Positions 27,931 through 54,284 of a stretch of 64,000 nucleotides of DNA are shown here, in pieces (position 1 is the first letter of the stretch; each line of letters opens with the position of its first letter). The stretch covers positions 23,436,001 to 23,500,000 of the forward strand of contig OX597840.1 in assembly GCA_951406725.2 (NCBI GenBank). Direction: 5' to 3'. Origin of the DNA: Octopus vulgaris. Lineage: Eukaryota. Position numbers and translations under genes: made by a program. Below the pieces are notes generated by a model. The model saw nothing but the letters and a program-made list of their open reading frames with translations. It was not told where the DNA came from and did no database searches.

Positions 27931-28104
27931 TGATAATTTTAATATTTGAGGGATTCATATAATTTTCCATGCAGAATTTCATCAGTTAATTTGCTTCTTC
28001 CCCAGAAAGTTGGGACCTTTTCGGTTTGAACGGCAGTTTTTTAAAATAATTTCCACATAACCAAACACTTTTAAACTTTGTATACTGGTAGAATGTGTTT
28101 ATAA

Positions 28105-28800
28105 GTCCTTTATTTTCGGCCGAAAAGAGGTTGTCACTGTTCTAGGACAGCACTCTTCGCCCTATGAGATGACATCTGGTGTGCCACAGGGATCTGTTCT
28201 TGGCCCCCTTTTATTTGTTGCATATGTTAATGACATAGATGCCAACTTAAAGAATGCCACAGTGCTGAAATATGCAGATGACATCAAGCTGTACCTCGAA
28301 ATAAAGAGGTCAGATCCTGTACACTATGGATCTCTATTGCAAGCAGACCTGGACACAATGCAGCAGTGGATCATGGACTGGCAACTCAAGCTGGCTGTGG
28401 ACAAATGTACCACCATGCATTTTGGGAGGAGAAACCCAGCGTCCACCTACTCCCTCCACAACACTAGTCTCAAAAAGTCTTCAAGTGAACGTGACCTGGG
28501 TGTTATTGTCGACAGTGATTTGCGTTGGACAAAACACATCGCCAAAATTGTCAAGAAGGCTGAGGGTGTCTTGGCATCACTCACCAAATCCTTTGTGAGC
28601 CGCTCTCCGGCTATCTATCTGCGGCTTTATATAGCTATGGTAAGACCTCACCTGGAATTTGCATCACCGGTCTGGAACCCCTATCTACCCAGGACATCAA
28701 TCGTCTGGAAGCTGTTCAGCGACATGCTACCAAAAGAATACCCTCCATCAGGCATTTGCCATATCCTGAACGCCTTACTTCCCTGGGCATGGACACATTA
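28105..28800 (+). mobile_element. Internal RT fragment of a CR1/L2-group LINE
   Basis: SGVPQGSVLGPLLF, LKYADDIKLY, ERDLGVIVDSDL, VRPHLEFASPVWNPY; frameshift near 28690; truncated at both ends. Confidence 0.9.
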
Positions 28801-29244
28801 AAAAGAAATACTTTAAAAGGGAAAAACGTGAGAAAAAAAAGAAAAATTAATAATCTAATTTAACAATAGACAAAAACATGTGCCTTCTCGCACATAAACA
28901 CAGTATTCACACATATACAAACATGCGCAGATGCAATTATTGAAGTACTAAATGGCACGTCAAATGATATTTAATCGTGTGGAACATGTTACATGCATAT
29001 CAATATTCTAAAGTTTGGACATACTATCCCTTATCCTAAAGCTGCTTCAGACAATTAGGAAGGGTTCCCGACTTGTTGCACCGTCTGCTTTCAATCTTGG
29101 ATTGTGATTCGGCTCAGCCCAAACTCTCTCAGATTTTGTCTGCTGTTGCCTACTCCTACAAGGATTGCACCTGTTTTTTGTTCCTGATTTAACCCCGATT
29201 TGTCCTAGAGCCCATAGAAGATTGTTTTTAGTCAACCATCCATC

Positions 29245-30705: not shown

Positions 30706-33589
30706 GGGCAAATCGAAGTGAAGTTGATACCCCCGTCAACGATGCTATCTCTGATGCCCTTTATTCTGCTTGTTCCCCAACTCCCGCCCCTCAGACTTCA
30801 CAGCTCAGCATCGTCTACACCAACTCGTGCTCCTTATTCCCAAAATTCAGTGAACTATTTACACTGGCCATACGTGACTCCCCTGATGTGATAGCTATCA
30901 CCGAGACTTGGCTGACTCCAGCAGTAAAGGACTCAGAAATCCACCTGCAGGGCTACGTCCTTTTCAGATGTGACAGAGGAAAAAGGCGAGGTGGAGGTGT
31001 TGCTGTGTATGTTAAGTCTGAGCACAAACCGTCCAGCGGTATTCTACCCACAAATGCTCAACCTACAACAAAATTCGATGCCGTCTATTGCAAGCTGAGC
31101 CTATCTGAGTTTTGCCTGCCCGTGTTGGCTGTCTACAGGCCGCCTCTAGCCGACCCCCAGGACGATGCTCATCTACTCGAAGCGATAAGATTCGTTTCAG
31201 CTTCGCATGACTGCTTGGTACTAGGCGACTTCAACACTCCCACGATCGATTGGCCCGCATCAATTTGTACAACATCTTCCCGGTTCGGCCAGGCCCTTCT
31301 TGACGTGGCTGAAGATTGTTTTCTATCGCAACATGTTGAATATCCGACAAGGCATCGGTCTGGGCAGCAGCCATCTATGCTAGATCTGGTATTCTCCCGC
31401 TATCCAAGATCAGTGTCAGACGTATCTGTGTGCGCCCCTCTTGCCAAGAGTGATCATGCGGTCCTGAAGTTCGTCATGCACACAACTTTTTCCACGCCCA
31501 CGATTACTTCGCTGCCACGTAGTCTTCTCTGCAATTAATCTTGAAATTCTAACCGAGGCTTCCGCGCTTCTGGATTGGCGATCTCTGATGACGTTGTCCT
31601 CAGTTGATGAACTATGGTCATCCCTCAAAGCATATGTAATCTGTTTGACTGACCAGGCAGTTCCCGTTGGGCTTCCAAAGAGGAAGAAACACAAGCCCTG
31701 GGTGACGAAGAAGGTTAAACGAGAACGTCGACTCAGAGATATTGCTTGGGCTGAATTCAAAAATCTGGATTCGACTGCAGCTTTTGAGGTGTACAAAACT
31801 CAACGAGACCGAGCCGTGAAAATTGAAAAGAAAGAACGCTTCAGTTATGAATACAAAATCGCGGCAAATGCCAGTAGCAATCCAAAAACCTTCTTTGCCC
31901 ATGTCCAGCGGAATTCCCGCTTGAACAACCAGATTGCAACGTTGGTAGACTCAACAGGCGTATCAATTGAGGACCCTTATCAACAGAGTCAATTATTTGC
32001 CGAGGCTTTTTCAACTATTTTCAAACAAGATGATGGTCGTGAACCCCCTCCATTTGATAGATCGGTACCTCCAATGCTTCGATTGATCATCACGCGGGAC
32101 GAAGTCAAACGTGTTATTCAAGGCCTCGATGTCAACAAGGGTCACGGCCCTGACGGCATACACCCACGGGTTATCAAAGCGTTGGCTCCGGTCATCTGCG
32201 AGCCCTTAACACGACTATTCAATATGTCATTGGCGACGGGTGTTATACCTGCAGACTGGAGAACAGCGATAATCTGCCCAATTTTCAAGAAAGGGAGCCG
32301 CGAAGACCCGCTTAACTACCGACCGGTTTCCCTTACATCAATAATCAGCAAGATGTTCGAAACCATCCTTAAGAAAAGTATGATGCTCCACCTCCTAAAC
32401 ACAGCCTCGATCACTGATTCCCAACACGGCTTCGTGCCGAAGAGATCATGCTTGACCAACTTACTAGTAATGGAAGAATTGGTGACGCGCATCCTCGATG
32501 ATAGTGATGCTGTTGACATCGTTTTATTGGACTTTGCCAAAGCTTTTGACTCGGTAAACCACCGCCTACTACTTGTCAAGCTTCAAGCATATAGTTTCCA
32601 TCCGGATATTGTACGATGGGTTGGTGCCTTCCTTTCAGATCGCTCCTTCCAAGTTCAAGTTAATGGTTCGCGGTCCGACGTCTCCAGTGCGAGCAGTAGC
32701 GTGCCTCAAGGTTCAGTGCTTGGGCCCTTGTTGTTCTTAGTCTTCATAAATGACTTGCCCGACGACCTCACGCAACACACCCTTCTATTTGCCGATGATA
32801 TCAAACTGGTCGCTCCTCGCGGTAGCATAGAGGATATTCGTCGATGCCTCCACCAAATTTGGAAGTGGTCTAACGATTGGGACCTGTGTCTGAACGTGTC
32901 AAAGTGCTGTCATCTGCCTGTCGGCTCTACTCCTGCAACTCAACTTGATTTCGAGCCGGGTCGTCTGCTGCTGGAGAGGACCGATCAGGTAAAGGACCTA
33001 GGTATCTTGGTGGATTCCTCCTTTTCGCCTTCGGCCCAGTGCGTCCATGCTGCCAACAAAGCGCGCGGAATTCTGTTTTTGATTCGACGGTCATTCGGAA
33101 TGCTCACAGCAGGCCATATTCCTGCCACTCTATGTCACGCTGGTGAGACCCATATTGGAGTATGGGATTCAAGCCTCTTCTCCTTATCTCCTCAAAGACA
33201 TACAGCATCTCGAAAGAGTCCAGAGGCTGGCTACCCGCATGGTTCATGGTCTCAAAAATTTGTCCTACGAAGAAAGGCTGAGGACGCTCGACCTTTATTC
33301 TCTTGAAAAACGCCGCCGCCGTGGTGATCTCATTCTCGCCCACAACATCATAAGCGGGAAGTGTAACCTCTCGAAAGAGCTGTTCTTCACTCCTGCTCCG
33401 GAGCGTCGGCTGCGGGGTCATTCCGAAAAGCTCTACCTGCGACGATTTCATCTCAATCGAAGGAGAGGAGCTTTCTCTGTCCGGGTTGCAGATCCGTGGA
33501 ACAAGCTGCCAGACGAGATGGTGAAGATGCCGACGACCGCTTTGTTCAAAGCCTCCCTGGACCTCAAGTGGCCTGAACTCTTTACATGA
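30702..33589 (+). pseudogene. LINE ORF2 (AP endonuclease + reverse transcriptase), frameshifted near 31520 and 33110
   Basis: EN: YTNSCSL, IAITETWL, RGGGVAVYV, VYRPP, GDFN, LDL, SDH. RT: GPDGI, NYRPVSLTS, QHGF, DFAKAFDSV, VPQGSVLGP, FADD. C-terminus: RLRGH, FSVRV..PWNKLP. Confidence 0.92.
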
Positions 33590-33658
33590 ACACCACCCTG
33601 TACTTAACTCCATGTCCCCCTACATGGCCTTGCTATTTGCTTTTGAGCCAAATTAATT

Positions 33659-33758
33659 NNNNNNNNNNNNNNNNNNNNNNNNNNNNNNNNNNNNNNNNNN
33701 NNNNNNNNNNNNNNNNNNNNNNNNNNNNNNNNNNNNNNNNNNNNNNNNNNNNNNNNNN
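33659..33758. other. Assembly gap (100 N)
   Basis: Run of N; true size and the orientation across it are unknown. Confidence 0.99.
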
Positions 33759-34154
33759 AATACGTTTGTGAGAAAATGATTTACCACAGATATCACAATG
33801 ATATGGCTTCTCTCCTGTATGAACACGCCTGTGCTGAGTTAAGTTACCATTTTCAGAAAATGATTTACCACAGATATCACAATGATATGGCTTCTCTCCT
33901 GTATGAATGCGTTTGTGAATAGTTAAGTTACCATTTTCAGAAAATGATTTACCACAGATATCACACCGATATGGCTTCTTTGCTGTATGAACACGCTTGT
34001 GCCTCGTGAAATAACGATATCCAGAGAAGGATTTACCACAGATATCACAATGATATGATATTTTGCCCTTTTCATTCTTCTCCTCGTCAGAAAAATCAAT
34101 TTCTTCAGACTCTCTTTTACATTCAACTTCACTCCGATATAATTCATTTTCCAT
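33759..34154 (-). CDS. C2H2 zinc-finger protein B-L1 (5' part; cut by the gap)
   Basis: [33 protein letters not shown] followed by at least 3 fingers. Minus-strand acceptor at 34732-34731. Confidence 0.85.
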
Positions 34155-35519
34155 AATTTTCCTTTCTCTCGTCACAGTACACAAATGTTTTCCTTCTTCT
34201 CGTATATTGCTCTTAACAAATATTTCTACTGATATATCTCCATCAAAAGTGATCTTTGTTAATATCTGAAGATGCTGCAAACTGCCTTCTTAATTGCTTT
34301 AACTCATTAACATTCAGATTACTCTGTCAAACGTAATGATTATTTATTTAAATTCTTCTGAATTAATCATTCATTATCTTATTGCTTTAAGATTTCAACG
34401 ATGTGATTCTTTATGTTTATATGACATTGTAGGGTGATCGTAAGAGGCCAGCTGTAGGCAATTTCAACATAGAATATGCAGAATATTTGGGAATGGTATG
34501 CCCAGTTCAAATGTTAAAGGATTAATTCAAATACAAATATAATTTTCTGTGTATTCCAGACAATAAAGAAGAGAAATTTTGCTACATAAATGTCAGAGTT
34601 CAGAAGATATATTTTGCAGTAATTCAGTATATATTTATAGAAACAGGGTTATACGTGTTATGAGTAAGACGTTCAATACTAATGATGTAGTTTATATAAA
34701 AATCCTGTGATGCTGAGGTCATCTGATAATCTGAAACGAAAGAGAAACAACAGTGTAAAACATACAAGATAATTAGGAATTAGAGAGATTAAAACAGTGA
34801 AAGTTTTACTACATTTTTATATAGACATGTCCATAGAGGTGCAGGGATGGTTGTGTGGTAAGAAGTTGATTCCCAACACACAAATCTAATAAGCACACCC
34901 ATTTTCTTCCTTCATTTCACTCCTTTCTTGAATTCCCAAGATTCCCTGTCACCATCCAATTCCATTAACGTGAATTTGAATTTGAATGCTTGAGACATTG
35001 TGAATCTTTCTTTAGCTGATTACACAACCATGGATACGTTGCAGTTACTCTCTTCATAGAGCCTGGTGATCCTGACCCCTGAACTACAAGGTTCCCTCTG
35101 CCCAGCATCAATATAAGAAGCATTGTTGGTTCAGCTGAGTTCTTCTGCTGCTTCTTCACAAACTGCCATCTGCAGTCCCAAAGTTCGTCACAGAGTACCC
35201 CAGAAGCGATCTAAAAAAATGGTTAGAAATCATGTGTAAAACATGAATTCATTTATATTACCGAAAATATAAAGTATGGTAATGACCAAACAATGGCAAT
35301 TTGAACTTATTTTTTTTTTGAAACTAAATTCGGCCGATAATAATGGTAATTAATTATGTACAAGATCCAGTTAGAGACAAACAAATGGTAGTTACTAATC
35401 CACCCCCATACAATGTGATTTAGTGTGTGTTCATAAATAATTTTTTGGGTAATGGAACCCAGTTATATGTATTTCATCATATTAAATTCCAATATAATCG
35501 TAATATACAAATGTAACCT

Positions 35520-35939
35520 TAAGTGAGAATAAAGAGCTCTTTAAATGTCGAGTTATTTCCCCCTAGCAATTCCCGCACTTTTTCTCCTGCAATATTTTTC
35601 CATTCCCTGCTGTTGATTGACCCTCGTGTTTATTACCGGTCACATCCGTTCAACAGATAATTAGCTGAGATTTAATTCGATAGACGTGATTGCTAATTAA
35701 ACATGTAGAAAAATTATCCAACTGAATTCTTTATTACGCTAATCTTAAAAACATAACGTCTATAATAAAACCTAGAATTTCTTACGAAGCTGTCGTTGTC
35801 TACCTTGGCTTAAGTTCTCACTACCTGAACATACTGCGACCTCGTCCTTACCGGATCTAAATATTACCTGCTTATTGTTAGAATGGATTGATTGTGACAC
35901 CTTCCTCCTCTACATTGGGTCTATAAATAATACGTAAGT
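35520..35939 (+). promoter_or_regulatory. Putative promoter/exon 1 of spacer arm B (points to R1 here; the inverted copy at 49864-50285 points to L2)
   Basis: CpG-containing unique block starting with agttatttcccc and ending in a GTAAGT donor at 35934. Confidence 0.45.
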
Positions 35940-36302
35940 GTTATATATATATATATATCCTGCCATTGTCTGTCGTAGCTGAAGTTCTCATTTGGACATC
36001 CGTTTCTATAATAGATTTGTTATTAATGTATCAGTATTGTTCACATCAACGATTCTTTTTATGTGTTCAGTAAGTTATCAGAAAGAAACTGAAGGAAATA
36101 GAGAAATGTAACGAAAATAATTATTGTTATAATCTATATACAGAAGGGTCTCACATAATGTAAAGTAAATGTGAATTGTCAATATTGGGTTAACTAAGAG
36201 GTTGATCTAAGCAACATCAGAATTCCAGTCGAAGCAAAATTCTGGTTTAACCCCTCATAACTTCTTTACCTTTTAAATTTTCAGAAAATGTTTGTAAATT
36301 TG

Positions 36303-36710
36303 GGATCTTTTCGGTTTGAACGGAAGTTTTTTAAAATAATTTCCAGGTAACTAAACACTTTTAAACTTCGTATACTGGTAGAATGTGTTTATAAAACATC
36401 TTTTCTCTTGGCTTTATTGAGAAAATTCTATAGTTTGTAAGATATTTGTTGTTTTTTTCAATTTCTGCAATTTCAACCTATCAATGACGTCTATTGAGGT
36501 GAAAACATTCTGTCCCGTATGAATTTATGTGCCTTCGTTTAAGAAACAGATTGGGTTTATTTACATTTGTGAAGAAAAAAGATACCCTTCCCGCCACCCC
36601 TAACCCTAAAATAGATTGAAATGCAATAGACCGATACTAGGGTCATAATTATGGGTGACAATTTCATATGACACCACTAGAAAAAACTGCCATTCAAACT
36701 GAAAAGATCC
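36303..36710. mobile_element. MITE, same family as 16167
   Basis: TIRs GGATCTTTTCGGTTTGAAC / TTCAAACTGAAAAGATCC; internal ccctaaccctaa. Confidence 0.85.
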
Positions 36711-36929
36711 GAGATGGAGCCTGAACAGCCCTTCAGTTGGTTACCTCCTTTCAAACCATCCAACCCATGCCAGTGTGTAAAATGGACTTTAAATGATGAC
36801 GGAGTGATAATTTTAAATTTGCATAGACATCTTGTAGTATGCCGTTTAAAGCCTGCTCACTGTATTTGGCTATCTGATGTCATCGACAGTATGGATTTGA
36901 ATGACACTGGATTTACTTGAGGATTTCCT

Positions 36930-37350
36930 TCATCATCGTTTAACGTCCATTCTCCGTGCTAGCATGGGCTGGACGGTTTGACCGGGGATCTGGGAAGCCA
37001 GAAGGCTGCGCCAGGCTCCAGTCTGATCTGGCAGTGTTTCTACAGCTGGATGCCCTTCCTAACGCCAACCACTCCGTGAGTGTAGTGGGTACTTTTTATG
37101 TGCCACCAGCACAAGTGCCAGACGAGGCTGGCAACGGCCACGATCGGATTGGTGCTTTTTTACATGCCACAGGCACGGAAACCAGTCTAGGCGGCGCTGG
37201 CATCGGCCACGTTCAGACGGTGCATTGATGTGCCACCGGCTGAGGGATCACGACTGCAGTTTCCATTGAATTTGATGTTGGTGTACTTGACTCAATGGAT
37301 CTCCTCAAGCACAGGGTTGAAATGGTGTTTCTTCACTTGCTACCTGCACA
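36930..37350 (-). mobile_element. RTE 3' UTR fragment
   Basis: catcatcgtttaacgtcc... as at 19715; inverted counterpart at 48420-48845. Confidence 0.8.
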
Positions 37351-38042
37351 GGAGTCAGTCCTGTCAGTAGAGTTTAAAAAATGAGAGAAGAGAAAGAAAA
37401 TAGAATTTCCAAGACTAGTATTCACTACAATTGTTTCAACCCATTGTGCATCTGTGCCTCGCAGGTGAGATGCTGTACGAACAGTTGTGGTGCTTCCCTC
37501 GTTGCAGGTGTGTTTTGTCAGGTAACTTGTCAAAAGTGCTTCATATTTTAATTTCTGTTTTGCTTAATTCAGTTAGAATATATTTTGGTAGTTGGATTAT
37601 TTGAAGTTTCTTTTAGTTTCCATCTACCAAATCCTTGCCCAAGGCTTTGATTGGCCACGCTGGGACTGAACCCAGGACCATGTGGTTGGGAAGCCAACTT
37701 CTTACCACACAACCATCCCTGCACTTCTACAGCCATGTCTATATAAAAATGTAGTAAAACTTTCACTGTTTTAATCTCTCTAATTCCTAATTATCTTGTA
37801 TGTTTTACACTATTGTTTCTCTTTCGTTTCAGATTATCAGATGACCTCAGCTTCACAGAAGAATTTGAATAAATAAGCATTAAATTCAGAAGAATTTGAA
37901 TAAATAAGCATTAAATTTGACAGAGTAATCTGAATGTTAATGAGTTAAAGCAATTAAGAAGGCAGTTTGCAGCATCTTCAGATATTAACAAAGATCACTT
38001 TTGATGGAGATATATTAGTAGAAATATTTAAGAGCAATATAC

Positions 38043-38194
38043 ACTCTCGGAGTTGTTGGCGTTAGGAAGGGCATCCAGCTGTAGAAACACTGCCAGATCT
38101 GACTGGCCTGGTGCAGCCTTCGGGCTTGCCAGACTCCCAGTTGAACCGTCCAACCCATGCTAGCATGGAAAGCAGACGTTAAACGATGATGATG
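38043..38194 (+). mobile_element. 152-bp RTE tail inserted in the leader of R1
   Basis: actctcggagttgttggcgttagg...gacgttaaacGATGATGATG; ATAC at both junctions; absent from L1 and L2. Confidence 0.88.
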
Positions 38195-39616
38195 ATACGA
38201 GAAGAAGTAAAACATTTGTGTACTGTGACAAGAAAAAAGAAAATTATGGAAAATGAATTATATCGGACTGAAGTTGAATGTAAAAGAGAGTCTGAAGAAA
38301 TTGATGTTTCTGATGAGGAGAAGAATGAAAAGGGCAAAATATCATATCATTGTGATATCTGTGGTAAATCCTTCTCTGGATATCGTTATTTAACTATTCA
38401 CAAACGCATTCATACAGGAGAGAAGCCATATCACTGTGATATCTGTAGTAAATCATTTTCTCAAAATAGTCACCTGACTAGGCACAAACACATGTTCATT
38501 CAGGAGAGAAGCCATATCATTGTGATATATGTGGTGAATCTTTCTCTGTAGCTTGGACCTTGACTACACACAAGCATGTTCATACAGGAGAGAAGCCATA
38601 TCAGTGTGATATCTGTGGTAAATCCTTCTCTAGAATTAATCATGTAACTGCTCACAAACGTGTTCATACAGGAGAGAAGCCATATCATTGTGATTTCTGT
38701 GGTGAAATCATTTTCTCAAAATATTCACCTGACTAACCACAAACGCATTCATACAGGAGAGAAGCCATATCAATGTGATATTTGTGATGAATCATTTTCT
38801 ACAAATGGTCACTTGACTGGTCACAAACGCATTCATTCAGGAGAGAAGCCATATCAGTGTGATATCTGTGGTAAATCCTTCTCTAGAATTAATCATGTAA
38901 CTGGTCACAAACGCATTCATTCAGGAGAGAAGCCATATCAATGTGATATTTGTGGTGAATCATTTTCTCAAAATAGTAACCTGACTAGGCACAAACGCAT
39001 TCATACAGGAGAGAAGCCATATCATTGTGATATCTGTGGTAAATCATTTTCTCAAAATATTCACCTGACTAACCACAAACGTATTCATACTGGGGAAAAA
39101 CCATATCAGTGTGATATCTGTGGTAAATCATTTTCTGATAAAAGTTCTTTAGATGGTCACAATCGTATTCATACAGGAGAGAAGCCATATCATTGTGATA
39201 TCTGTGGTAAATCATTTGCTGATAAAAGATCTTTAAATGGTCACAATCGTATTCATACAGGAGAGAAGCCATATCATTGTGATATCTGTGGTAAATCATT
39301 TTCTCAAAATAGTCACCTGACTAACCACAAACGTATTCATACTGGGGAAAAACCATATCAGTGTGATATCTGTGGTAAATCATTTTCTGATAAAAGATCT
39401 TTAAATGGTCACAATCGTATTCATACAGGAGAGAAGCCATATCATTGTGATATCTGTGGTAAATCATTTTCTAAAAGTGATCACCTGACTAGGCACAAAC
39501 GCATTCATACAGGAGAGAAGCCATATCATTGTGATATCTGTGGTAAATCATTTCCTCAAAATGGTCACCTGACTAGGCACAAACGCATTCATACAAAAGA
39601 AGTCACATCACTGTAA
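38186..39616 (+). pseudogene. C2H2 zinc-finger gene B-R1 (15 fingers), two compensating frameshifts as assembled
   Basis: +2 nt near 38492 and +1 nt near 38704, so start and end are in the same frame with a stop between. May be intact if these are consensus errors. Confidence 0.75.
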
Positions 39617-41379
39617 TACCTGTGGTAAATCATTTCCCAAAAACAGCACTTTGTCTAGTCTCAAATGTCTTCATACATGAGAGAAGCCATATCATTGAAA
39701 CATGTGGCAAATCATTTGCTTATAGAAGCAGCGTAACTACTTCCTTAAACCTTCATGAGAGACAAAACCATACCAGTCATCTGTCATCATTGTTCTCCAT
39801 GTCCACATTTGCCAATCTCTCATTGGTGAGATGATATTTATTGAGGTGAATTTTCACTGTCCAGATGCCCTTCCTGTTGCCAACCTTCACCTGTTTCAAA
39901 CTAAAATATTTCCCCATAACCTGACATATTTGTGTGGCAGATTGGCGATGGACATTGCTTGCATGGCAGTGACACCCACAACTATCACACAGTCTCCAGG
40001 CAAGGATATAGTGACACACACACATTCATAAGCCCCTCACACTTCTAAGAAACATCCTCCTCTATCCTCTGTACCACTAATATTCCCCCACCACCACCAC
40101 TACCTTTTGTGTATGTCCTCATACATCACCCATCCATTTCTCTCTATATACACTTTACTCCTTACATATTTCAGTCATTTTACTGCGGCCATGCTGGGGC
40201 ACCGCCTTTAATTGAGCAACTCAACCCCGGGACTTATTCTTTTGTAAGCCCAGTACTTATTTTATCGGTCTCTTTTGCCGAACCGCTAAGTAATGACTTT
40301 GCCTTTCATCCTTTCGGGTTCGATAAATTAAGTACTAGTTATGCACTGGGGTCGATGTAATCGACTTAATACTTATGTCAGTCCTTGTTTGTCCCCTCTA
40401 TGTTTAGCCCCTTGTGGGTAATAAAGAAATAGGTATAATACTTATTTTATCTGTATAAATTTACTAAAACCATTAAATGGTTAACTACTTTCTGAAGTTT
40501 CACGTTGATGCTGGTAATCATGGTCCAGGCCATATTTTACTGTATCTAACACCGCCGACAACATCATAATACATCCTTGTGCATGTATACTCCCTAAGTA
40601 AATATGACATAGCATTCCTACTGAAACCTTCATTTACTTTATACGATGTTTAATGTTGTTTCACATTCATGTTGAATTATGTAGCAGTCTTATGTTCTCT
40701 TCATAGAACACTTGTAATTTATGTGTTACCAGTTCTTTTGGTATTGTAGATCTTTGCTATTCTTGTTCATGTCTCCTCACAGACGTGTATATTCTAACAT
40801 TTCGCTTCTTAAATTTCCCACCTCTCTTGTTCAATAAACACTGAGTTAAACTTGCAAAGCTGTTTCTTTTCTCCTTTCAATTTTTATTGTTTATTTCAGC
40901 AGGTTACCAAACTATCAGTTTCGTCTCCCGGCTAAAACAGTTGTGACAGATTTTAAAGTTTGTTTGACATTTTAGAAGTGTGAAAGGGATTAAAATTTCG
41001 ATACTCCATATCAAAGGTTCCGACAAGAATAGGCAGAAAATCAGAGCTTGAGACAAGAAGAAACTTTTGACCAATCAGAATTCTGTTTACATAATCAGTT
41101 TGATTGGACACCTTCCTCTGTCATTTGATTAAGTGTCATCCAAGCTGATGTTTATTGGTAATTAAACTTAATTTGCAACACCTGTGCATATCTATCAGCT
41201 TTGTTTTTGTTGATAAGAACTGGCAACAACTTTTCCTATGATCGTGATTTGGGAAGACCTACAGAAGAATACGAAAGATCGGACATAATCTCTTGCGGGC
41301 AAGAAACCTCTATATATATAAACGGCAAAATGTCTGTGTGTGTGTGTTTATACAAATCCACAATTTTTCAGTTAGAGGG

Positions 41380-41423
<44 letters not shown>

Positions 41424-41772
41424 CAACGGGCTTCTTTCAGTTTCCATCTAAATCCACTCACAAGGCTTTGGTCGGCCCAAGGCTATAGTAGAAGACACTT
41501 GCCCAAGGTGCCACACAGTGGGACTGAACCCGGAACCATGTGGTTAGTAAGCAAGCTACTTACCACACAGCCACTCCTGCACCTATGTGAAGATTTTTTA
41601 CATGACAACAATTAAAACTACTTTGTCTGCTAAAACACAATGTTTTTTCCCTTCATCAACTTCAATATTGTCAAGGTGAACCTCAAATTTGTCATCATCT
41701 GTAAAAATATTCACTCTGACACAACTTCATTACTGGAAATTTTATAGTATACTTGAATTTGTTAATAAAGAA

Positions 41773-42426
41773 TCTCTGTATAAACGGCAAGATGTCTGTC
41801 TGTGTGTGTGTTCTTTATACAAATCCACAATTTTTCAGTTAGAGGGCTTGCACTTTCTATGGTCATTCAAAACCATCGAAGGGTGGTCGTGCACATCTTT
41901 ACATTTCCCCAGCCACCCCGCAAATCCATTAAAAAATCAATAGAAGAGACTTTTTTGTGAATTTTCTTTCCAAAACCCAATCAAAATGCCCAAAACTTGA
42001 TACGCCAATTGAATGCCAGCTAGCTGTATGGTTGTTCCTTCTTGAGCCATGCCTGTCTTATAAGGGCCGGTTTCTTGGCGTATAGGTTCCCCGCCAGGAC
42101 GGGACGCCAGTCCATCGCAAGTGAGCTGCAAGATGCAGGAGGAAAGAGTGAGAGAAAGAGTCAGCAGAAGTTTCACCATTACCTTCTGCCAGAGCTGTGT
42201 GGAGTTTAGGTGTTTCGCTCATAAACACACATCGCCCGGTCTGAGATTCGAACCCACAATTCCTCGACCGCGAGTCCGCTGTTCTAACCACTAGGCCATG
42301 TGCCTCCGCAGCTAGCTGTATGTGAATGGTTGGAGATTTGGACAGTACTCGCGTATGTGTGCACACACGCAGCTGTATATGCATGCACTAGCACTATGAC
42401 CCGGTGTTGCCGGGTCATAGTGCTAG
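41773..42426 (+). mobile_element. Non-autonomous Helitron carrying a SINE insertion
   Basis: 5' a|TCTCTGTATAAACGGC; 3' hairpin gacccgg-tgttg-ccgggtc then CTAG|t. Confidence 0.72.
42031..42308 (-). mobile_element. tRNA-derived SINE (family 3), full length
   Basis: 14-bp TSD CAGCTAGCTGTATG at 42017-42030 and 42309-42322; A/B boxes on the minus strand. Confidence 0.88.
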
Positions 42427-42949
42427 TGTAAAATAAAGTTTATTATAAACAACACAAACACTTCATAATTTAATAACTTTCAATGTGATACCTGTTAAAC
42501 AAATTATTTTTAATTAGGGAAAATTTAATAAAATCTAATCATAAGTGAAATTATGCTAAATACAACTAAATTGGAAACCTTTTCCCTCTGGCTAAAAATT
42601 GGGTGTGAATTTTACATGAGTAGAAGCTTCTTTTTAACAGTTTTTATCCAGAAAATTACCTGTGCAAATTACGTGTGTTTTTATGGTGTACATATATATA
42701 TATAGGTTATAATAGGTAATGGTGTCAGGTAATGTTGAAGAACTGCTATAGATACCATAGTGAAGTTCTAGTTTCGGTAATTTTTCGAAGGGGTTTCAAC
42801 ATTGGTCACATGCCAGCGTGTGTATATAACAATATTTTGCGTAATGAGATAAAGAACCAAGGCTGTGTAGATATTAGAACACTTATAGATAGAAAGTCTA
42901 TAAATGTTCTAATATCTACACAGCCTTACACAAACAATTCTTATATATA

Positions 42950-42992
<43 letters not shown>

Positions 42993-43449
42993 ATATATAT
43001 TTATTATAAATATAAATCCAAACTTACAGGGAAAAATTAGAATTAGGATTAAATCTAATTTTACGGTATAAATATAGATTAAATTAGAGATAAAACCACA
43101 ATTAGGCAAATCAAACAGTGAAAAACATAAACCAAAACATAGGAATAAAAATAATTAATATAATATATAAAATAAAAAAACAAAAAACAAATGAGTACTC
43201 TTTGAAAATGAAAGTGAAACATAACATTTTGCTCAAAAACACAATACACAGCCTGGCATGGGAATTGAACTCACTACCTCACAATTGTGAGCCCAATGCT
43301 CTAACCACTGAGCCATGTACCTTCACATATATATGTGAAGGCACATAGCTTCACACACATACATATACATATATATATATATCCGCTCAGTCGACCCTGT
43401 CACTCGGTTGGATCAGTGTCCTCCAATCCCTGGGCCACTTCTTTCAGGG

Positions 43450-43752
43450 CTACGTGTGTGTGTTCTTGAGCAAGACACTTTATTTCACATTGCTCTTCTA
43501 GCAACATTTTCTTTTTAGAACAGTTCACTCAACTGTAGAAATGAGTTCAAATCCCGGACTTGTGACATCACTGGTGCCAAGCTGTATCGGCCCCTTTGCC
43601 TTTCCCTTGGATAACACTGGTGGCGTGGAGAGGAGAGGCCGGTATGCATGGGCGACTGCTGGTCTTCCATAAACAACCTTGCCCGGACTTGTGCCTGGGA
43701 GGGTAACTTTCTAGGTGCAATCCCATAGTCAATCATGACCGAAGGGGATCTC
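43450..43752 (+). mobile_element. SINE family 4 body (copy with tRNA-like head at 61425-61750)
   Basis: gtgttcttgagcaagacactt...ggtgcaatcccatagtc; the 61.4-kb copy has a gagttcaaatccc B box. Confidence 0.65.
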
Positions 43753-44229
43753 AGCTGATCCCTGTAAAAGGCCCCTGTCCTAGTTCATGTAAAGAGCACA
43801 CATGCTGATCCATGTGGTTATTCAACTTATTCCTTCCCCTGAAATTGCTGGCCTTGTGCCAAAATAAAGTCAGATACAATAATGCCTTGATATATGAGTT
43901 AATTTCTTCCTGGAGATTGCTCCTAAAGTGAAAACTCATAAAGCAAAGCAATAATTTCCCATAGAAGCAATGTTATAAATTGTAATTCATTCCCAGAAAA
44001 ATATTTTACCAATAAAATTTATAATACTTGTAAATAAATGACAATAAAACAACAGTAGAATGTAAAGAATATTTTATGTAAAGTCAAAAACAATGTCAAG
44101 ATCATTTAGAATAGACAAAATATTATTATTATAATTGTTTTCTGAATCGCTTTGAAAAGACTCAGGGACACCATCATTAGTAGACGTGACCACTGATTCA
44201 CAAGAAAGAAACAAGTCTAGAGTTGTTTA

Positions 44230-44607
44230 CTGAGAAGCATTCCTTTGCTCTTTATAAACTTCTTGGTAAGACACAGATGCATTTATTATGGTAGTAGAAG
44301 CTTTCAAAATTTGGATGTTGTGCTCGAAAAATAAAACTCATAAACAATGTATGTAACTTGGGAAATGAATCTATTCCTCATGAAATGTGTTCTCTGTCTG
44401 AGGGACATCCATGCTTCTTCTTTTTTGTGTGTTCACATCCTGAACTAGTTATTGCACAAATTAAGTTTTTGGATGCACAAGTGAAATCAGTCTCAATTAT
44501 GAATCTCTGTCCTGGTTTAAAATGGAATTCCGAACCTTCCCGTACTTTCAAGAATGTTCCACATTTCGGACATCTGCATTCTTTAACTCTTCATTCCATT
44601 GTTGAGC
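44230..44607 (-). mobile_element. Penelope-like element relic (degenerate GIY-YIG endonuclease)
   Basis: Minus strand reads KECRCPKCGTFLKVREGSEFHFKPGQRFIIETDFTCASKNLICAITSSGC, then after a frameshift MSLRQR. This resembles C..C...FTC.S.NLIY.I.C..C...YIG.T..L..R of PLE GIY-YIG. Confidence 0.6.
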
Positions 44608-44729
44608 ACCCACCTCTCAGAGTGGTTGGTGAGGAAGAGCATCCAGCCATAGAAACCATGCGAAATCAGACAGGAATCAGATGCAGCCTTCCAGCCCTGG
44701 TCAAAATGTACAACCCATGCCAAGCATGG

Positions 44730-45335
44730 ACACCTTGGGTAAGTGTCTTCTATAATAACCTCTAGCCGACCAAAGCCCTGTGAGTGGATTTGGTGGATGG
44801 AAACTAAATGAAGCCCGTTATGTGTAGATTGGTATGTGTATGTATCTCTCTCTCTTTTTCTCTTTTACTTGTTTCAGTCATTTAACTGCGGCAATGCTGG
44901 AGCACCGCCTTTAGTCGAGCAAATCAACCCCGGCACTTATTTGCCGAACCGCTAAGTGATGGGGACGTAAACACACCAACATCGGTTGTCAAGCAATGCT
45001 AGGGGGACAAACACAGACACACAAACAAAAACACATATATATATATACATATATACGACAGGCTTCTTTCAGTTTCCGTCTACCAAATCCACTCACAAGG
45101 CACTAGTGGGCCCAAGGCTATAGCAGAAGACACTTGCCGAAGATGCCACGCAGTGGGACTGAACCCGGAACCATGTGGTTGGTTAGCAAGCTACTTACCA
45201 CACAGCCACTCCTGCGTCTGTGTTTGTGTATGTCCCCCAATATCGCTTGACAACCGATGCTGGTGAGTTAAGCAGTTTGGCAAAAGGGACAGATAGAATA
45301 AGTACTAGGTGTAGAAAGAATAAGTCCTGGGGATC
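44730..45335. mobile_element. Nested SINE family 1 copies in opposite orientations
   Basis: A plus-strand body (ccttgggtaagtgtc...) is interrupted by a full minus-strand copy at 44850-45220. Same arrangement at 62740-63340. Confidence 0.7.
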
Positions 45336-46156
45336 CATTGTCTGCTTTGGCAAGGTTCCCATGGCTGGAGGCCCTTCCTAACACCGACCCCTTTACTGAG
45401 TGCATTGGGTGCTTTTTATGTGACACCAGCATCATTGGGGATCACCAAGTAACTCGCAAGATAAAGATCCACTCGGTTGTCAGAGGGAGTGGAAGCGAGG
45501 GGCATGGCTTTTTGTCAGTTGGGAGGTTGATGTATAACGGCAGGAGAGAGACGAGTGTCTTACTATAGAGGAGAAACCTGACGATTCCAGTAGGAAAAGA
45601 AAGGAGAGAATGATAGATATATAGAGAGAAATGGATGGTGTTGGAGATGTATGAGGACATACATAAAAGGTAGTGGTGGTGGGGGAATATTAGTGGTACG
45701 GAGGATAGAGGGAGATGTTTCAAAGAAGTGTGAGGGGCTTATGAATGTGTGTGTGTGTGTTACTATATCCTTGCCTGGAGACTGTGTGATAGTTGTGGGT
45801 GTCACTGCCATGCAAGCAATGTCCATCGCCAATCTGCCACACAAACATGTCAGGTCATGGGGAAATATTTTAGTTTGAAACAGGTGAAGGTTGGCAACAG
45901 GAAGGGCATCTGGACAGTGAAAATTCACCTCAATAAATATCATCTGACCAATGAGAGATTGGCAAATGTGGACATGGAGAACAATGATGACAGATGACTG
46001 GTATGGTTTGTCTCTCATGAAGGTTTAAGGAAGTAGTTACGCTGCTTCTATAAGCAAATGATTTGCCACATGTTTCAATGATATGGCTTCTCTCATGTAT
46101 GAAAACGTTTGAGACTAGACAAAGTGCTGTTTTTGGAAAATGATTTACCACAGGTA

Positions 46157-47449
<1,293 letters not shown>

Positions 47450-48419
47450 TTAATATCTGAAGATGCTGCAAACTGCCTTCTTAATTGCTTTAACTCATTA
47501 ACATTCAGATTACTCTGTCAAATGTAATGCCTATCTCTCCAAATTTTTCTGAATTAATCATTCATTATCTTACTGCTTTAAGATTTTAACGATGCGATTC
47601 TATATGTTTATAAGACATTACAGGGTTAGTGTAAGAGGCCAGATGTAGGCAATTTTAACATAGAATATGCAGAATATTTGGGAATGGTATGCCCAGTTCA
47701 AATGTTAAAGGATTAATTCAAATACAAATATAATTTTCTGTGTATTCCAGACAATAAAGAAGAGAAATTTTGCTACATAAATGTCAGAGTTCAGAAGATA
47801 TATTTTGCAGTAATTCAGTATATATTTATAGAAACAGGGTTATACGTGTTATGAGTAAGACGTTCAATACTAATGATGTAGTTTATATAAAAATCCTGTG
47901 ATGCTGAGGTCATCTGATAATCTGAAACGAAAGAGAAACAACAGTGTAAAACATACAAGATAATTAGGAATTAGAGAGATTAAAACAGTGAAAGTTTTAC
48001 TACATTTTTATATAGTCATGGCTGTAGAAGTGCAGGGATGGTTGTGTGGTAAGAAGTTGGCTTCCCAACCACATGGTCCTGGGTTCAGTCCCAGAGTGGC
48101 CAATCAAAGCCTTGGGCAAGGATTTGGTAGATGGAAACTAAAAGAAGCTTCAAATAATCCAACTACCAAAATATATTCTAATTGAATTAAGCAAAACAGA
48201 AATTAAAATATGAAGCACTTTTGACAAGTTACCTGACAAAAAACACACCTGCAACGTGGAACGTACCACAACTGTTCGTACAGCATCTCACCTGCGAGGC
48301 ACAGATGCACGATGGGTTGAAACAATCATAGTGAATACTAGTCTTGGAAATTCTATTTTCTTTCTCTTTCTCTCATTTTTTAAACTCTACTGACAGGACT
48401 GACTCTGTGGACTGACTCC

Positions 48420-48845
48420 TGTGCAGGTGGCAAGTGAAGAAACACCATTTCGACCCTGTGCTTGAGGAGATCCATTGAGTCAAGGACACCAACATCAAAT
48501 TCAATGGAAACTGCAGTTTTGATCCCTGAGCCGGTGGCACGTCAATGCACCATCTGAACGTGGCCGATGCCAGCGCCGCCTAGACTAGTTTCCGTGCCTG
48601 TGGCATGTAAAAAGCACCAATCCGATCGTGGCCGTTGCCAGTCTCGTCTGGCACCTGTGCAGGTGGCACATAAAAAGTACCCACTACACTCACGGAGTGG
48701 TTGGCGTTAGGAAGGGCATCCAGCTGTAGAAACACTGCCAGATCAGACTGGAGCCTGGCGCAGCCTTCTGGCTTCCCAGATCCCCGGTCAAACCGTCTAA
48801 CCCATGCTAGCATGGAGAACGGACGTTAAACGATGATGATGATGA
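48420..48845 (+). mobile_element. RTE 3' UTR fragment
   Basis: Ends ggacgttaaacgatgatgatgatg; inverted counterpart of 36930-37350. Confidence 0.8.
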
Positions 48846-49064
48846 AGGAAATCCTCAAGTAAATCCAGTGTCATTCAAATCCATACTGTCGATGACATCA
48901 GATAGCCAAATACAGTGAGCAGGCTTTAAACGGCATACTACAAGATGTCTATGCAAATTTAAAATTATCACTCCGTCATCATTTAAAGTCCATTTTACAC
49001 ACTGGCATGGGTTGGATGGTTTGAAAGGAGGTAACCAACTGAAGGGCTGTTCATGCTCCATCTC

Positions 49065-49502
49065 GGATCTTTTCAGTTTCAATGACAGATTTTCTAGTGG
49101 TGTCATATGAAATTGTCACCCATAATTATGACCCTAGTATCGATCTATTGCATTTCAATCTGTTTTAGGGTTAGGGGTGGCGGGAATGGTATCTTTTTTC
49201 TTCACAAATGTAAATAAACCCAATCTGTTTCTTAAACGAGGGACATATTCATACGGGACAGAATGTTTTCACCTCAATAGACGTCATTGATAGGTTGAAA
49301 TTGCAGAAATTGAAGAAAAAACAACAAATATCAACAAATATCTTACAAAGTGTTTAGTTACGTGGAACTATAAAAATTTTTTCTCAATAAAGCCAAGAGA
49401 AAAAGATGTTTTATAAACACATTCTACCAGTATACGAAGTTTAAAAGTGTTTAGTTACCTGGAAATCATTTTAAAAAACTTCCGTTCAAACCGAAAAGAT
49501 CC
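49065..49502. mobile_element. MITE, same family as 16167
   Basis: Inverted counterpart of 36303-36710. Confidence 0.85.
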
Positions 49503-50690
49503 CAAATTTACAAACATTTTCTGAAAATTTAAAAGGTAAAGAAGTTATGAGGGGTTAAACCAGAATTTTGCTTCGACTGGAATTCTGATCTTGCTTAGAT
49601 TAACCTCTTAGTTAACCCAATATTGACAATTCACATTTACTTTACATTAGTGAGACCCTTCTGTATATAGATTATAACAATAATTATTTTCGTTACATTT
49701 CTCTATTTCCTTCAGTTTCTTTCTGTTAACTTACTGAACACATAAAAAGAATCGTTGATGTGAACAATATTGATACATTAATAACAAATCTATTATAGAA
49801 ACGGATGTCCAAATGAGAACTTCAGCTACGACAGACAATGGCAGGATATATATATATATATACACTTACGTATTATTTATAGACCCAATGTAGAGGAGGA
49901 AGGTGTCACAATCAATCCATTGTGAACAATAAGCAGATAATATTTAGATCCGGTAAGGACGAGGTCGCAGTATGTTCAGGTAGTGAGAACTTAAGCCAAG
50001 GTAGACAACGACAGCTTCGTAAGAAATTCTAGGTTTTATTATAGACGTTATGTTTTTAAGATTAGCGTAATAAAGAATTCAGTTGATAATTTTTCTACAT
50101 GTTTAATTAGCAATCACGTCTATCGAATTAAATCTCAGCTAATTATCTGTTGAACGGATGTGACCGGTAATAAACACGAGGGTCAATCAACAGCAGGGAA
50201 TGGAAAAATATTGCGGGAGAAAAAGTGCGGGAATTGCTAGGGGGAAATAACTCGACATTTAAAGAGCTCTTTATTCACACTTAAGGTTATTTAGTTATCT
50301 AAGGTTAATTTTTCATTTAATTATTAGAAAAAGGTTGTAAAAGAAGAGGAAATATAACTTTTTTTCCATTACACTCAAGCAAAAAATTATTTATGAATTT
50401 CTTTCTCTTTCACATTTTCTAAATATCAGTATTTTCTAAATATCAGTGGGGGATAGATTAGTAACTACCATCGACTTTTGTCTCTCACTGGATCTTTATT
50501 TTATTTATTCCGAAGCTATGAAAGGTAAAATTAACATCGGCCGAATTTAAGCTCAAAAAAAAAAAAAATAATGTCTGGCCTAAATAATTGCCATTAAGTT
50601 TGGTACATTACCATAATTTCGTTTCGGTATTCAAAACAAACTAATTCATGTTTTACACATACCCCATTTTTAACGGTATTTTTTTCTAAG

Positions 50691-50828
50691 GATCGCTTCT
50701 GGTATCTGAGAAGTTCTTTGATCCCTTTTCTGAAATTAGCGACTTTTCTGGATGCATTTCTGCTTTTGTATCAAAACTGCAGGGAAAAGGACTCCTTCGA
50801 AGATAACGATCGAGATTTAATCGTAAGT
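50691..50828 (+). other. Putative non-coding 5' exon for R2
   Basis: tttttctaAG|gatcgcttctgg ... gatttaatc|GTAAGT (50823). Confidence 0.4.
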
Positions 50829-51004
50829 AAAGTAATAATTTCGTCTTATTTTTTAGATTTAAGTTCGTTTTCTCTTTGTACAAAACCTTTTATTGTCGCA
50901 AATCTTTGGAAATTCAAAATTTGTTTAGATTTTACCCATCGTAAATAATATTCGAAACCTGATGGAAATTAAGTTACTTTCATGAAATATAAACGTAATA
51001 TGTT

Positions 51005-51224
51005 CAGTCTGGGTACTACTAGCGAACAGTGGTCCCGGTGCGCGCACTCGCGCTAGCTAGTCGTAAGTAGTCGAGCCTACAACGACTTTTTAACCCTAAA
51101 CCTAACCCTAACCTTATTTTGTTTATAAAAATAATATATTTACTTAGTTTAAATTATTGTAGGATCGACTAGCTTGCGCGAGTTCGCGCACCGGGCCCAC
51201 TGTTCGCTAGTAGTACCCAGACTG
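51005..51224. mobile_element. 220-bp MITE with ~58-bp GC-rich TIRs
   Basis: CAGTCTGGGTACTACTAGCGAACAGTGG.CCCGGTGCGCG.ACTCGCGC.AGCTAGTCG is inverted at both ends; internal taaccctaa repeats; no clear TSD. Confidence 0.8.
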
Positions 51225-52462
51225 TGTATATTACGATTATATTGGAATTTAATATGATGAAATACATTTGCTGGGTTCCTACCCACACATAACTGACACA
51301 CGTCACATTGTATGGGTGGTGGAGCATTTGTTAATTAAGTATTGCACATAATTAATTTACCATTATTATTATTAGTTTCTGAGTTCAAATTCCACCGAGG
51401 TCCACTTTATATTTTCCAAATAAAATATAAATGAACGGTTGTGATTTCTAACCATTTTTTCGCCTGGGGTACTCTGTGACGAACTTTGGGACTGCAGCAT
51501 GGCAGTTTGTGAAGAAGCAGCAGAAGAACTCAGCTGAACCAACAATGCTTCTTATATTGATGCTGGGCAGAGGGAACCTTGTAGTTCAGGGGTCAGGATC
51601 ACCAGGCTCTATGAAGAGAGTAACTGCAACGTATCCATGGTTGTGTAATCAGCTAAAGAAAGATTCACAATGTCTCAAGCATTCAAATTCAAATTCACGT
51701 TCATGGAATTGGATGGTGACAGGGAATCTTGGGAATTCAAGAAAGGAGTGAAATGAAGGAAGAAAATGGGTGTGCTTATTAGATTTGTGTGTTGGGGAGC
51801 CAACTTTTTACCACACAACCATCCCTGCACCTCTATGGACATGTCTATATAAAAATGTAGTAAAACTTTCACTATTTTAATCTCTAATTCCTAATTATCT
51901 TTTATGTTTTACACTGTTGTTTCTCTTTCGTTTCAGATTATCAGATGACCTCAGCTTCACAGGATTTTTATATAAACTACATCATTAGTATCGAACGTCT
52001 TACTCATAACACGTATAACCCTGTTTCTATAAATATATACTGAATTACTGCAAAATATATCTTCTGAACTCTGACATTTATGTAGCAAAATTTCTCTTCT
52101 TTATTGTCTGGAATACACAGAAAATTATATTTGTATTTGAATTAATCCTTTAACATTTGAACTGGGCATACCATTCCCAAATATTCTGCATATTCTATGT
52201 TGAAATTGCCTACATCTGGCCTCTTACACTCACCCTGCAATGTCATATAAACATAAAGAATCACATCGTTGAAATCTTAAAGCAATAAGATAATGAATGA
52301 TTAATTCAGAAGAATTTGAATAAATAAGCATTAAATTTGACAGAGTAATCTGAATGTTAATGAGTTAAAGCAATTAAGAAGGCAGTTTGCAGCATCTTCA
52401 GATATTAACAAAGATCACTTTTGATGGAGATATATTAGTAGAAATATTTAAGAGCAATATAC

Positions 52463-52613
52463 ACTCTCGGAGTTGTTGGCGTTAGGAAGGGCATCCAGCT
52501 GTAGAAACACTGCCAGATCTGACTGGCCTGGTGCAGCCTTCGGGCTTGCCAGACCCCAGCTGAACCGTCCAACCCATGCTAGCATGGAAAGCAGACGTTA
52601 AACGATGATGATG
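52463..52613 (+). mobile_element. 151-bp RTE tail inserted in the leader of R2
   Basis: Same insertion and junctions as 38043-38194. Confidence 0.88.
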
Positions 52614-54284
52614 ATACGAGAAGAAGTAAAACATTTGTGTACTGTGACAAGAAAAAAGAAAATTATGGAAAATGAATTATATCGGACTGAAGTTGAATGT
52701 AAAAGAGAGTCTGAAGAAATTGATGTTTCTGATGAGGAGAAGAATGAAAAGGGCAAAATATCATATCATTGTGATATCTGTGGTAAATCCTTCTCTGGAT
52801 ATCGTTATTTAACTATTCACAAACGCATTCATACAGGAGAGAAGCCATATCATTGTGATATCTGTAGTAAATCATTTTCTCAAAATAGTCACCTGACTAG
52901 GCACAAACACATTCATTCAGGAGAGAAGCCATATCATTGTGATATCTGTGGTAAATCTTTCTCTGTAGCTTGGACCTTGACTACACACAAGCATGTTCAT
53001 ACAGGAGAGAAGCCATATCATTCTGATATTTGTGATGAATCATTTTCTCATAATTATACCTTGACTCACCACAAACGCATTCATTCAGGAGAGAAGCCAT
53101 ATCAGTGTGATATCTGTGGTAAATCCTACTCTAGAATTAATCATGTAACTGGTCACAAACGCATTCATTCAGGAGAGAAGCCATATCAATGTGATATTTG
53201 TGGTGAATCATTTTCTCAAAATAGTCACCTGACTAGGCACAAACGCATTCATACAGGAGAGAAGCCATATCATTGTGATATCTGTGGTAAATCATTTTCT
53301 GGTAAAAGTTCTTTAAATAGTCACAATCGTATTCATACAGGAGAGAAGCCATATCATTGTGATATCTGTGGTAAATCCTTCTCTAGAATTAATCATGTAA
53401 CTGCTCACAAACGTGTTCATACAGGAGAGAAGCCATATCAATGTGATATCTGTGGTGAATCTTTTTCTCAAAATGGTCACTTGACTGGTCACAAACGCAT
53501 TCATACAGGAGAGAAGCCATATCAATGTGATATTTGTGATGAATCATTTTCTACAAATGGTCACTTGACTGGTCACAAACGCATTCATTCAGGAGAGAAG
53601 CCATATCAGTGTGATATCTGTGGTAAATCCTTCTCTAGAATTAATCATGTAACTGGTCACAAACGCATTCATTCAGGAGAGAAGCCATATCAATGTGATA
53701 TTTGTGGTGAATCATTTTCTCAAAATAGTCACCTGACTAGGCACAAACGCATTCATACAGGAGAGAAGCCATATCATTGTGATATCTGTGGTAAATTATT
53801 TTCTGATAAAAGTTCTTTAGATGGTCACAATCGTGTTCATACAGGAGAGAAGCCATATCATTGTGATATCTGTGGTAAATCATTTTCTGATAAAAGATCT
53901 TTAAATGGTCACAATCGTATTCATACAGGAGAGAAGCCATATCATTGTGATATCTGTGGTAAATCATTTTCTCAAAATAGTCACCTGACTAACCACAAAC
54001 GTATTCATACTGGGGAAAAACCATATCAGTGTGATATCTGTGGTAAATCATTTTCTCATAAAAGTTCTTTAAATGGTCACAATCGTATTCATACAGGAGA
54101 GAAGCCATATCATTGTGATATCTGTGGTAAATCATTTTCTAAAAATGATCACCTGACTAGGCACAAACGCATTCATACAGGAGAGAACCCATATCATTGT
54201 GATATCTGTGGTAAATCATTTCCTCAAAATGGTCACCTGACTAGGCACAAACGCATTCATACAAAAGAAGTCACATCACTGTAA
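52605..54284 (+). CDS. C2H2 zinc-finger protein B-R2 (18 fingers, finger 4 with C>S)
   Basis: Intact 559-aa ORF. The ancestral start is probably MENELY, 20 codons downstream. Acceptor AG at 51935-51936. Confidence 0.93.

Follow-up and report, generated by a model that had tools for sequence, protein, structure and literature searches.

We analysed a window of 64,000 nucleotides of the Octopus vulgaris genome (G000:C27:23436001-23500000, within a 2.8-Gb assembly; positions without a prefix are those of the window), in which two tandem units of head-to-head C2H2 zinc-finger (ZNF) genes carry a spacer with its arms in opposite orientations. Each unit consists of an L gene on the minus strand, the spacer and an R gene on the plus strand. 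The 870 kb around the window hold many poly-C2H2 open reading frames (ORFs) on both strands, plus inverted segmental duplications, and contain three 100-N gaps, at C27:22697789, 23023223 and 23469659, the last of which (window 33659-33758) cuts off the L gene of unit 1 (L1). For the L N-terminus, the nearest named proteins are Octopus zinc-finger proteins in five of five matches. R2, the R gene of unit 2, scores far above the cut-off for PF00096 and PF13465 and has the tandem fingers (17 canonical ones) and TGEKP-type linkers of a poly-C2H2 protein.

A first-pass annotation of this stretch had claimed that the spacer is inverted between the units while the arrays keep their places. Self-alignment of units 1 and 2 with the finger arrays masked bears out the L(-)...spacer...R(+) layout in both units and the reversal of arm B of the spacer (35514-37882 against the reverse complement of 50289-47871, 95.1% over 2429 columns). 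The upstream region of L1 resembles that of R2 (34202-35232 against the reverse complement of 52462-51442, 97.0%), and direct matches join the leaders of R1 and R2 (37879-38330 with 52300-52749, 99.3%) as well as L1 and L2 (34061-34882 with 47251-48073, 96.1%). In a four-way alignment of the genes, intron letters follow the arm, while letters from the late leader on follow position, including a 155-bp insert of the R genes; this insert and the coding diagnostics sort L1 with L2 and R1 with R2, so that the positional identity of the arrays stands. The 3′ flank, which had been regarded as specific to R genes, is not, as the first ~425 bp of the flank of L2 match that of R2 at 95.8%. The inversion is present in the assembled sequence and its pattern is far beyond chance. 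The arms share inverted homology (47392-48073 against the reverse complement of 52462-51786, 95.2%), with identical blocks of up to 209 bp. The spacers also differ in content: a 935-bp middle piece of unit 2 (50290-51224, with donor 50823) has no intact counterpart in unit 1, and R1 lacks ~345 bp of the common leader. The acceptor-to-acceptor length is 3102 bp in unit 1, 3127 bp in unit c (one of the further units described below) and about 3950-4015 bp in full units. The features are listed in the table.

Table. Features of the two head-to-head units, in window coordinates.
Feature	Position	Strand
100-N scaffold gap, truncates L1	33659..33758	.
L1, first 3 C2H2 fingers of the L-type array, ATG 34154	33759..34154	-
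L1 copy of the common 5′ homology: ~135-150 bp intron end, acceptor (exon start 34730), 576-nt leader	34155..34882	-
Arm A portion matching unit 2, intron-like, without donor motif	34883..35203	-
Collinear mosaic of 51225-51464 and 50290-50700; likely consensus artefact over A′ (deleted-type) spacer	35204..35513	.
Arm B proximal: first-exon/promoter region, homologous to upstream of MPKERG-type ZNF genes; donor GTAAGT 35934	35514..36290	+
Arm B distal: repeat-bearing intron; two pieces homologous to MENEL-type gene intron on C29	36291..37680	+
R1 copy of the common 5′ homology: acceptor (exon start 37833), ~345-bp leader deletion and 29-bp duplication near 37860, 155-bp repeat insert 38040-38194	37681..38245	+
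R1 finger array with frameshifts in the assembly; 99.5% identical to an intact gene of unit c with 15 fingers	38246..39616	+
Block between the units, from the R to the L 3′ flank; also present in unit 2, at 94-98%	39617..46039	.
L2 finger array, ATG 47344; frameshifts in the assembly (16 gap openings against the L gene of unit b)	46040..47344	-
L2 copy of the common 5′ homology, exon start 47921	47345..48073	-
Arm B, inverted relative to unit 1; donor 49869	48074..50289	-
Middle piece: MENEL-type family first exon ending 50822, donor 50823, short element 50986-51243; no intact block in unit 1	50290..51224	+
Arm A, opposite in orientation to unit 1; within the intron of joint 50822-51937	51225..51786	+
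R2 copy of the common 5′ homology: acceptor (exon start 51937), full leader, repeat insert about 52460-52613	51787..52664	+
R2, intact 539-aa ORF, 17 canonical C2H2 fingers	52665..54284	+

Genome searches with arm A, arm B and the common homology, in which only the best candidates were scored so that the counts are lower bounds, placed five more units (a to e) at C27:22.70-22.78 Mb, 700 kb from the window, and a related cluster at C29:23.85-23.90 Mb. Counting complete units only, and thus leaving out the incomplete ones at C29 23.851, 23.860 and 23.885 Mb and on C2, the seven C27 units show all four arm/array combinations: A-R/B-L in three (units 2, a and b), A-L/B-R in two (units 1 and c), A-R/B-R in d and A-L/B-L in e. 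Proximal arm B differs by only 0.1-1.0% among the seven spacers, and unit 2 matches units b and a at 99.0% and 98.4% over 11.5 and 14.4 kb. We considered that the units could be alleles retained as haplotigs and preferred paralogy, since collinearity with the flank is lost (past window 65044 we found no long collinear match to C27:22.79-22.82 Mb) and units a and b stand in tandem on one contig; allelism is possible for some of them. Two complete C29 units, x and y, served as outgroups. Unit x, which is about 4% diverged in arm B, combines a B-L pairing with a full spacer, and the layout of unit 2 (A-R, B-L, full spacer) is therefore likely to be the older one. Older family members sampled on C29 are head-to-tail or single; judging from this sample, the head-to-head layout is a young, local one. 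The contig starting at C27:22697889 begins just past the 3′ end of an L gene, and that of the window begins (33759) inside an L array, in complementary phase; the former may belong reversed beside window 33759, which would make one array of seven or more units split by the scaffold.

Deletions and marker haplotypes travel with these pairings. All three B-R genes carry one common leader deletion, from +27 to about +372 (~345 bp), with a 3-bp microhomology (CAG); in units 1 and c a 29-bp duplication accompanies it. A single ~820-bp spacer deletion, common to c, d and e, takes out donor 50823. In c and e, the A-L genes switch from the A-R haplotype, seen to about +397, to that of L, seen from +478, and an identical block of 76-117 bp lies across this switch in six of the seven units. 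The orientations are therefore non-reciprocal and scarred, with the scars inherited via duplication. The first-pass annotation had placed the breakpoints inside the inverted 5′ homology, and this holds, as the markers go with the arm in the intron and with the array from +478 on. The points at which arm gives way to array vary among the B-R genes, the A-L genes of c and e, and unit 1, so no fixed crossover point is seen; long similar inverted repeats flank the segment, and breakpoints lie inside the homology with flanking markers exchanged, as in non-allelic homologous recombination and conversion. In a tree of 20 coding starts, into which two incomplete units (w and that of C2) were taken, the well-supported branches force at least three arm changes and the best tree has five. 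As one inversion alters two ends, at least two events are needed.

We consider it probable that both spacer orientations arose by rare germline ectopic recombination within the ~620-bp 5′ homology, which re-paired first exons with arrays, followed by tandem duplication. Double-strand breaks repaired in the germ line between the inverted 5′ homologies of head-to-head paralogs would usually end in conversion, giving patchy leader haplotypes, and rarely in a crossover, giving a spacer inversion that re-pairs two different non-coding first exons with two finger arrays. At least two such re-pairings would have taken place, each product being then copied by tandem amplification. The four pairing classes, the marker switches and the tree agree in this with the earlier proposal that recombination in the inverted 5′ homology re-pairs arms with arrays, and did so more than once.

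Several observations weigh against this reading. All the evidence comes from one assembly with visible consensus damage (a mosaic, frameshifts and contig ends inside an array), and no read was seen across arm, homology and array. On the tree, the arm label clusters no better than it does in shuffles (66 and 83 of 500 as low), which fits frequent exchange too. The leader haplotypes are patchy, d and e together are not obtainable by one clean inversion, and the L leader of unit 1 differs from that of c at 6 of 200 sites in +200..+400. The RNA-like contigs discussed below carry mostly C29/C2-type letters and so do not support expression of the window copies. The history of unit 2 may also be less tidy than proposed: in its distal arm B, 48114-48500 lies 0.2% from C29 unit x and about 3% from its C27 neighbours, and near 49379 the identity to units a and b changes abruptly, a pattern pointing to further conversion, a recent interchromosomal exchange or a mis-join.

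Frequent exchange would be expected if spacer and inter-unit blocks re-inverted often in the germ line, so that a single unit would occur either way round within a population, as at the yeast flip/flop region. The occurrence of four pairings in units at most 1% apart in proximal arm B, the identical blocks of 76-209 bp between inverted arms and the leader haplotypes swapped between A and B sides would all suit such toggling, as would a C29 unit that also has arm B on an A-side-type array (support 86/90, not starred). It is nevertheless unlikely, for the deletions stay tied to the pairing class (three of three B-R genes), the seven C27 units include no B-R gene whose leader is whole, and homogenisation is incomplete: in the four C27 units with both leaders whole (2, a, b and e), arms of the same unit differ at 14-22 of 200 sites in +200..+400.

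The arm that faces L1 in unit 1 had been equated with the reverse complement of 51225-51845. This is true outside 35204-35513 and fails within it, where the assembly presents a mosaic of two unrelated unit-2 stretches: the segment tiles in order from 51225-51464 and 50290-50700, with 17 switches over the 441 bp examined. The mosaic scores 227 and 236 against its two sources (shuffled means, 13 and 18), and the sources against each other score -29, no better than shuffled sequence (-26 +/- 10). We rejected an ancestral or converted sequence, the two sources being unrelated to each other. None of the 21-mers of 35260-35480 occurs in the other fetched clusters, whereas in unit 2 (47200-52800) every 120-bp bin has at least 36% of its 21-mers in common with them. 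We know of no natural process that interleaves two unrelated sequences in this manner; consensus building or polishing over mixed reads does. Thus, 35204-35513 is likely a consensus artefact and unit 1 partly unreliable. Since its acceptor-to-acceptor length is near that of unit c and 35514-43447 matches c at 98.4%, unit 1 is probably c-type underneath, and its true spacer would likely be of the deleted A′ type, hence without a spliced A-side first exon for L1.

Such damage raises the question of whether the reversed orientation itself is an assembly product, reads from paralogous units having been mis-joined or mis-polished at the inverted homology. The mosaic and its private 21-mers speak for this, and so does the state of the coding regions: unit 1 starts at a gap, in which L1 ends, and R1 and L2 are frameshifted as assembled (ORFs of 101 and 130 aa). 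We find it improbable all the same. The reversed pairing recurs in unit c, on a separate contig and with intact ORFs (455 and 203 aa), the private deletion junction of the B-R genes lies ~120 bp from arm-B-specific letters three times, and each pairing class has private markers on both sides of its junction. More generally, contig-end copies in such clusters can carry chimeric consensus. At C29:23884549-23885712, two L-like genes are fused head-to-head just upstream of their acceptors, with the entire spacer gone and one side indel-rich; this is possibly a fold-back artefact or a promoterless palindrome.

The two arms were predicted to carry distinct first exons, and two subfamily-specific regions with conserved donors support this. 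Two parts of the spacer resemble MENEL-type ZNF genes on C29: the middle piece matches, at 74-80% and in the same sense as their acceptor, what lies upstream of many of them, and distal arm B matches the intron of some. Proximal arm B resembles the upstream region of MPKERG-type genes, and arm B itself looks like an older capture of the first exon of another subfamily. The predicted GTAAGT donors at 35934/49869 and 50823 are present and conserved, in 15 of 15 and 15 of 16 of the homologs aligned from the fetched regions, down to 75-79% identity, counts which include the window's own copies and near-identical paralogs. A 5′ exon in each arm is borne out for unit 2 and not for unit 1, whose arm toward L1 has no GT[AG]AG motif in 784 bp; the corresponding arm of unit c has none in 826 bp. 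Among contigs of four of 24 listed short-read runs, which we take to be RNA by guess, with 15 of 157 joints listed, a GT..AG joint 50822-51937 is found in three of the four runs (two studies) and the form without the R insert in all four. Where variant sites are listed, almost the whole depth is of letters that differ from the window and fit the C29/C2 copies (8/8 for x and y in the middle piece), so these contigs support the exon structure of the family and not the expression of the window genes. On the arm-B side the RNA-like contigs end at 49874, at a masked repeat, and donor 49869 is a candidate. The ATG lies in the last exon, 412-728 nt in for most copies and 381 in d; a flip would thus alter 5′ regulation only and leave the protein unchanged. 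It likely re-pairs the non-coding first exons of two ZNF subfamilies with finger arrays. The A-side intron contains a short element (50986-51243) whose core is telomere-like and whose inverted ends, of 78 bp, match at 91%. In 52602-52664 and 38183-38245, the (ATG)n tail of the R-leader repeat insert gives in-frame upstream ATGs, which would lengthen the R proteins by ~20 residues.

The boldest claim of the first-pass annotation, an invertible-promoter cassette akin to phase variation, fails: later duplications passed the pairings on together with fixed private deletions and marker haplotypes, the orientations are not reciprocal, the A-side donor is lost in the derived class, and part of the unit 1 signal is likely consensus error. 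A regulated or somatic flip-flop, in which cells would invert the spacer to choose the first exon of each array, is very improbable. The geometry allows it and the first exons come from different subfamilies; the mosaic would imply two read types piled up in unit 1, yet its sources fit full versus deleted spacers rather than a clean flip (3102 bp in unit 1 and 3127 bp in c, about 3950-4015 bp in full units). The scarred, non-reciprocal orientations and the youth of the head-to-head arrangement beside head-to-tail or single C29 relatives speak against it too. The six non-ZNF ORFs of at least 120 aa in 33759-64000, to which the search was confined, yielded no recombinase family. Recombinases can act in trans. 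Their absence alone does not exclude switching, because in fungi, segments between inverted repeats of at least 250 bp are inverted in a regulated way (PMC3574095, PMC5720833). A shufflon-like array of ZNF paralogs placed by turns head-to-head and tail-to-tail, whose spacers and inter-unit blocks would invert often at the 5′ homology in the germ line or in neurons, dealing two subfamily promoters among arrays and diversifying ZNF expression between individuals or cells, seems to us very unlikely. Ordinary shuffling in a duplicated cluster, and not a working switch, is the likely account.

Other features surround the units. A head-to-tail tandem array (3254-25672) holds four more same-strand ZNF genes of a different subfamily, MSEEL, plus fragments. 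At 28061-33660 lies a near-complete, frameshifted LINE-like element with ORF1-like, endonuclease (PF03372/PF14529) and reverse transcriptase (PF00078) frames; a second reverse transcriptase fragment is found at 28061-28801, and a 4.8-kb copy, at 96.9%, at C27:22829108-22833875. The inter-unit block of unit 2 contains a Pif1 helicase 2B-domain fragment (PF21530, 59377-59928), likely a Helitron remnant, and a 630-bp inverted repeat at 365-2171 (365-993 against 2171-1533, 93%) has no relation to the spacer inversion.

On the reading that we favour, rare germline recombination, the locus would be an example of cephalopod ZNF paralogs changing their regulation with the protein unchanged, an inversion in the common exon of the 5′ untranslated region (UTR) moving first exons between arrays. 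Cephalopod C2H2 ZNF expansions have been described as lineage-specific tandem families with paralogs in different expression modules, and such inversions would offer a testable route to this scatter; the main text of that report contains neither 'invers' nor 'orientation' and does not name an inversion mechanism (PMC12513265). A new diversification system would be at hand only if the inversions were somatic or very frequent. In the titles and abstract openings that our literature search covered (subscription papers and supplements being outside its scope), we found no description of a reversed spacer between head-to-head ZNF paralogs or for octopus ZNF clusters.

Site-specific invertible promoters rely on short inverted recombinase sites of tens of bp, one fixed crossover point and a dedicated serine or tyrosine recombinase. 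The octopus spacer differs from such bacterial phase-variation promoters in that its homology spans ~620 bp at 95-97%, and its derived class has lost ~345 bp of leader (three of three B-R genes) and ~820 bp of spacer (c, d and e), which is at odds with a conservative, reciprocal and reversible inversion. Among eukaryotes, the MAT loci of Sclerotinia (PMC3574095) and Ogataea (PMC5720833) provide inverted-repeat flips that change gene expression; they were shown to be reversible and tied to a life-cycle stage or signal, whereas the octopus orientations are non-reciprocal and known from one assembly. In human gene-pseudogene inversions, opposite-orientation duplicates recombine and flip the segment between them, with chimeric genes at the breakpoints (PMC12632684). 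Unlike these, the octopus pairs consist of two ZNF genes that are for the most part intact, and expressible chimeras can result at either end. The palindromic pairs of Drosophila, Hsp70 and Amy-p/Amy-d, are likewise linked paralogs in mirror orientation with ectopic conversion, in which a crossover leads to inversion (PMC3924832); their coding regions are homogenised, whereas in octopus the 5′ UTR exon is common, the arrays diverge and the pair itself is tandemly amplified. The closest likeness is to the flip/flop inversion of Saccharomyces chromosome XIV, which is attributed to non-allelic recombination and gene conversion between inverted paralogs, with no dedicated recombinase named in the portion of the report drawn on here, and which recurs over evolutionary time and is stable in the laboratory (PMC9731477). 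There, 4.2-kb near-identical repeats contain whole, homogenised genes; in octopus, the homology is a 5′ stretch of ~620 bp, 95-97% identical and internal to transcription units, so that diverged arrays receive other first exons, and deletions mark the products. The mechanism proposed for yeast matches the one favoured here, and by this analogy the octopus inversions would follow a known mechanism, like that of the flip/flop inversion.

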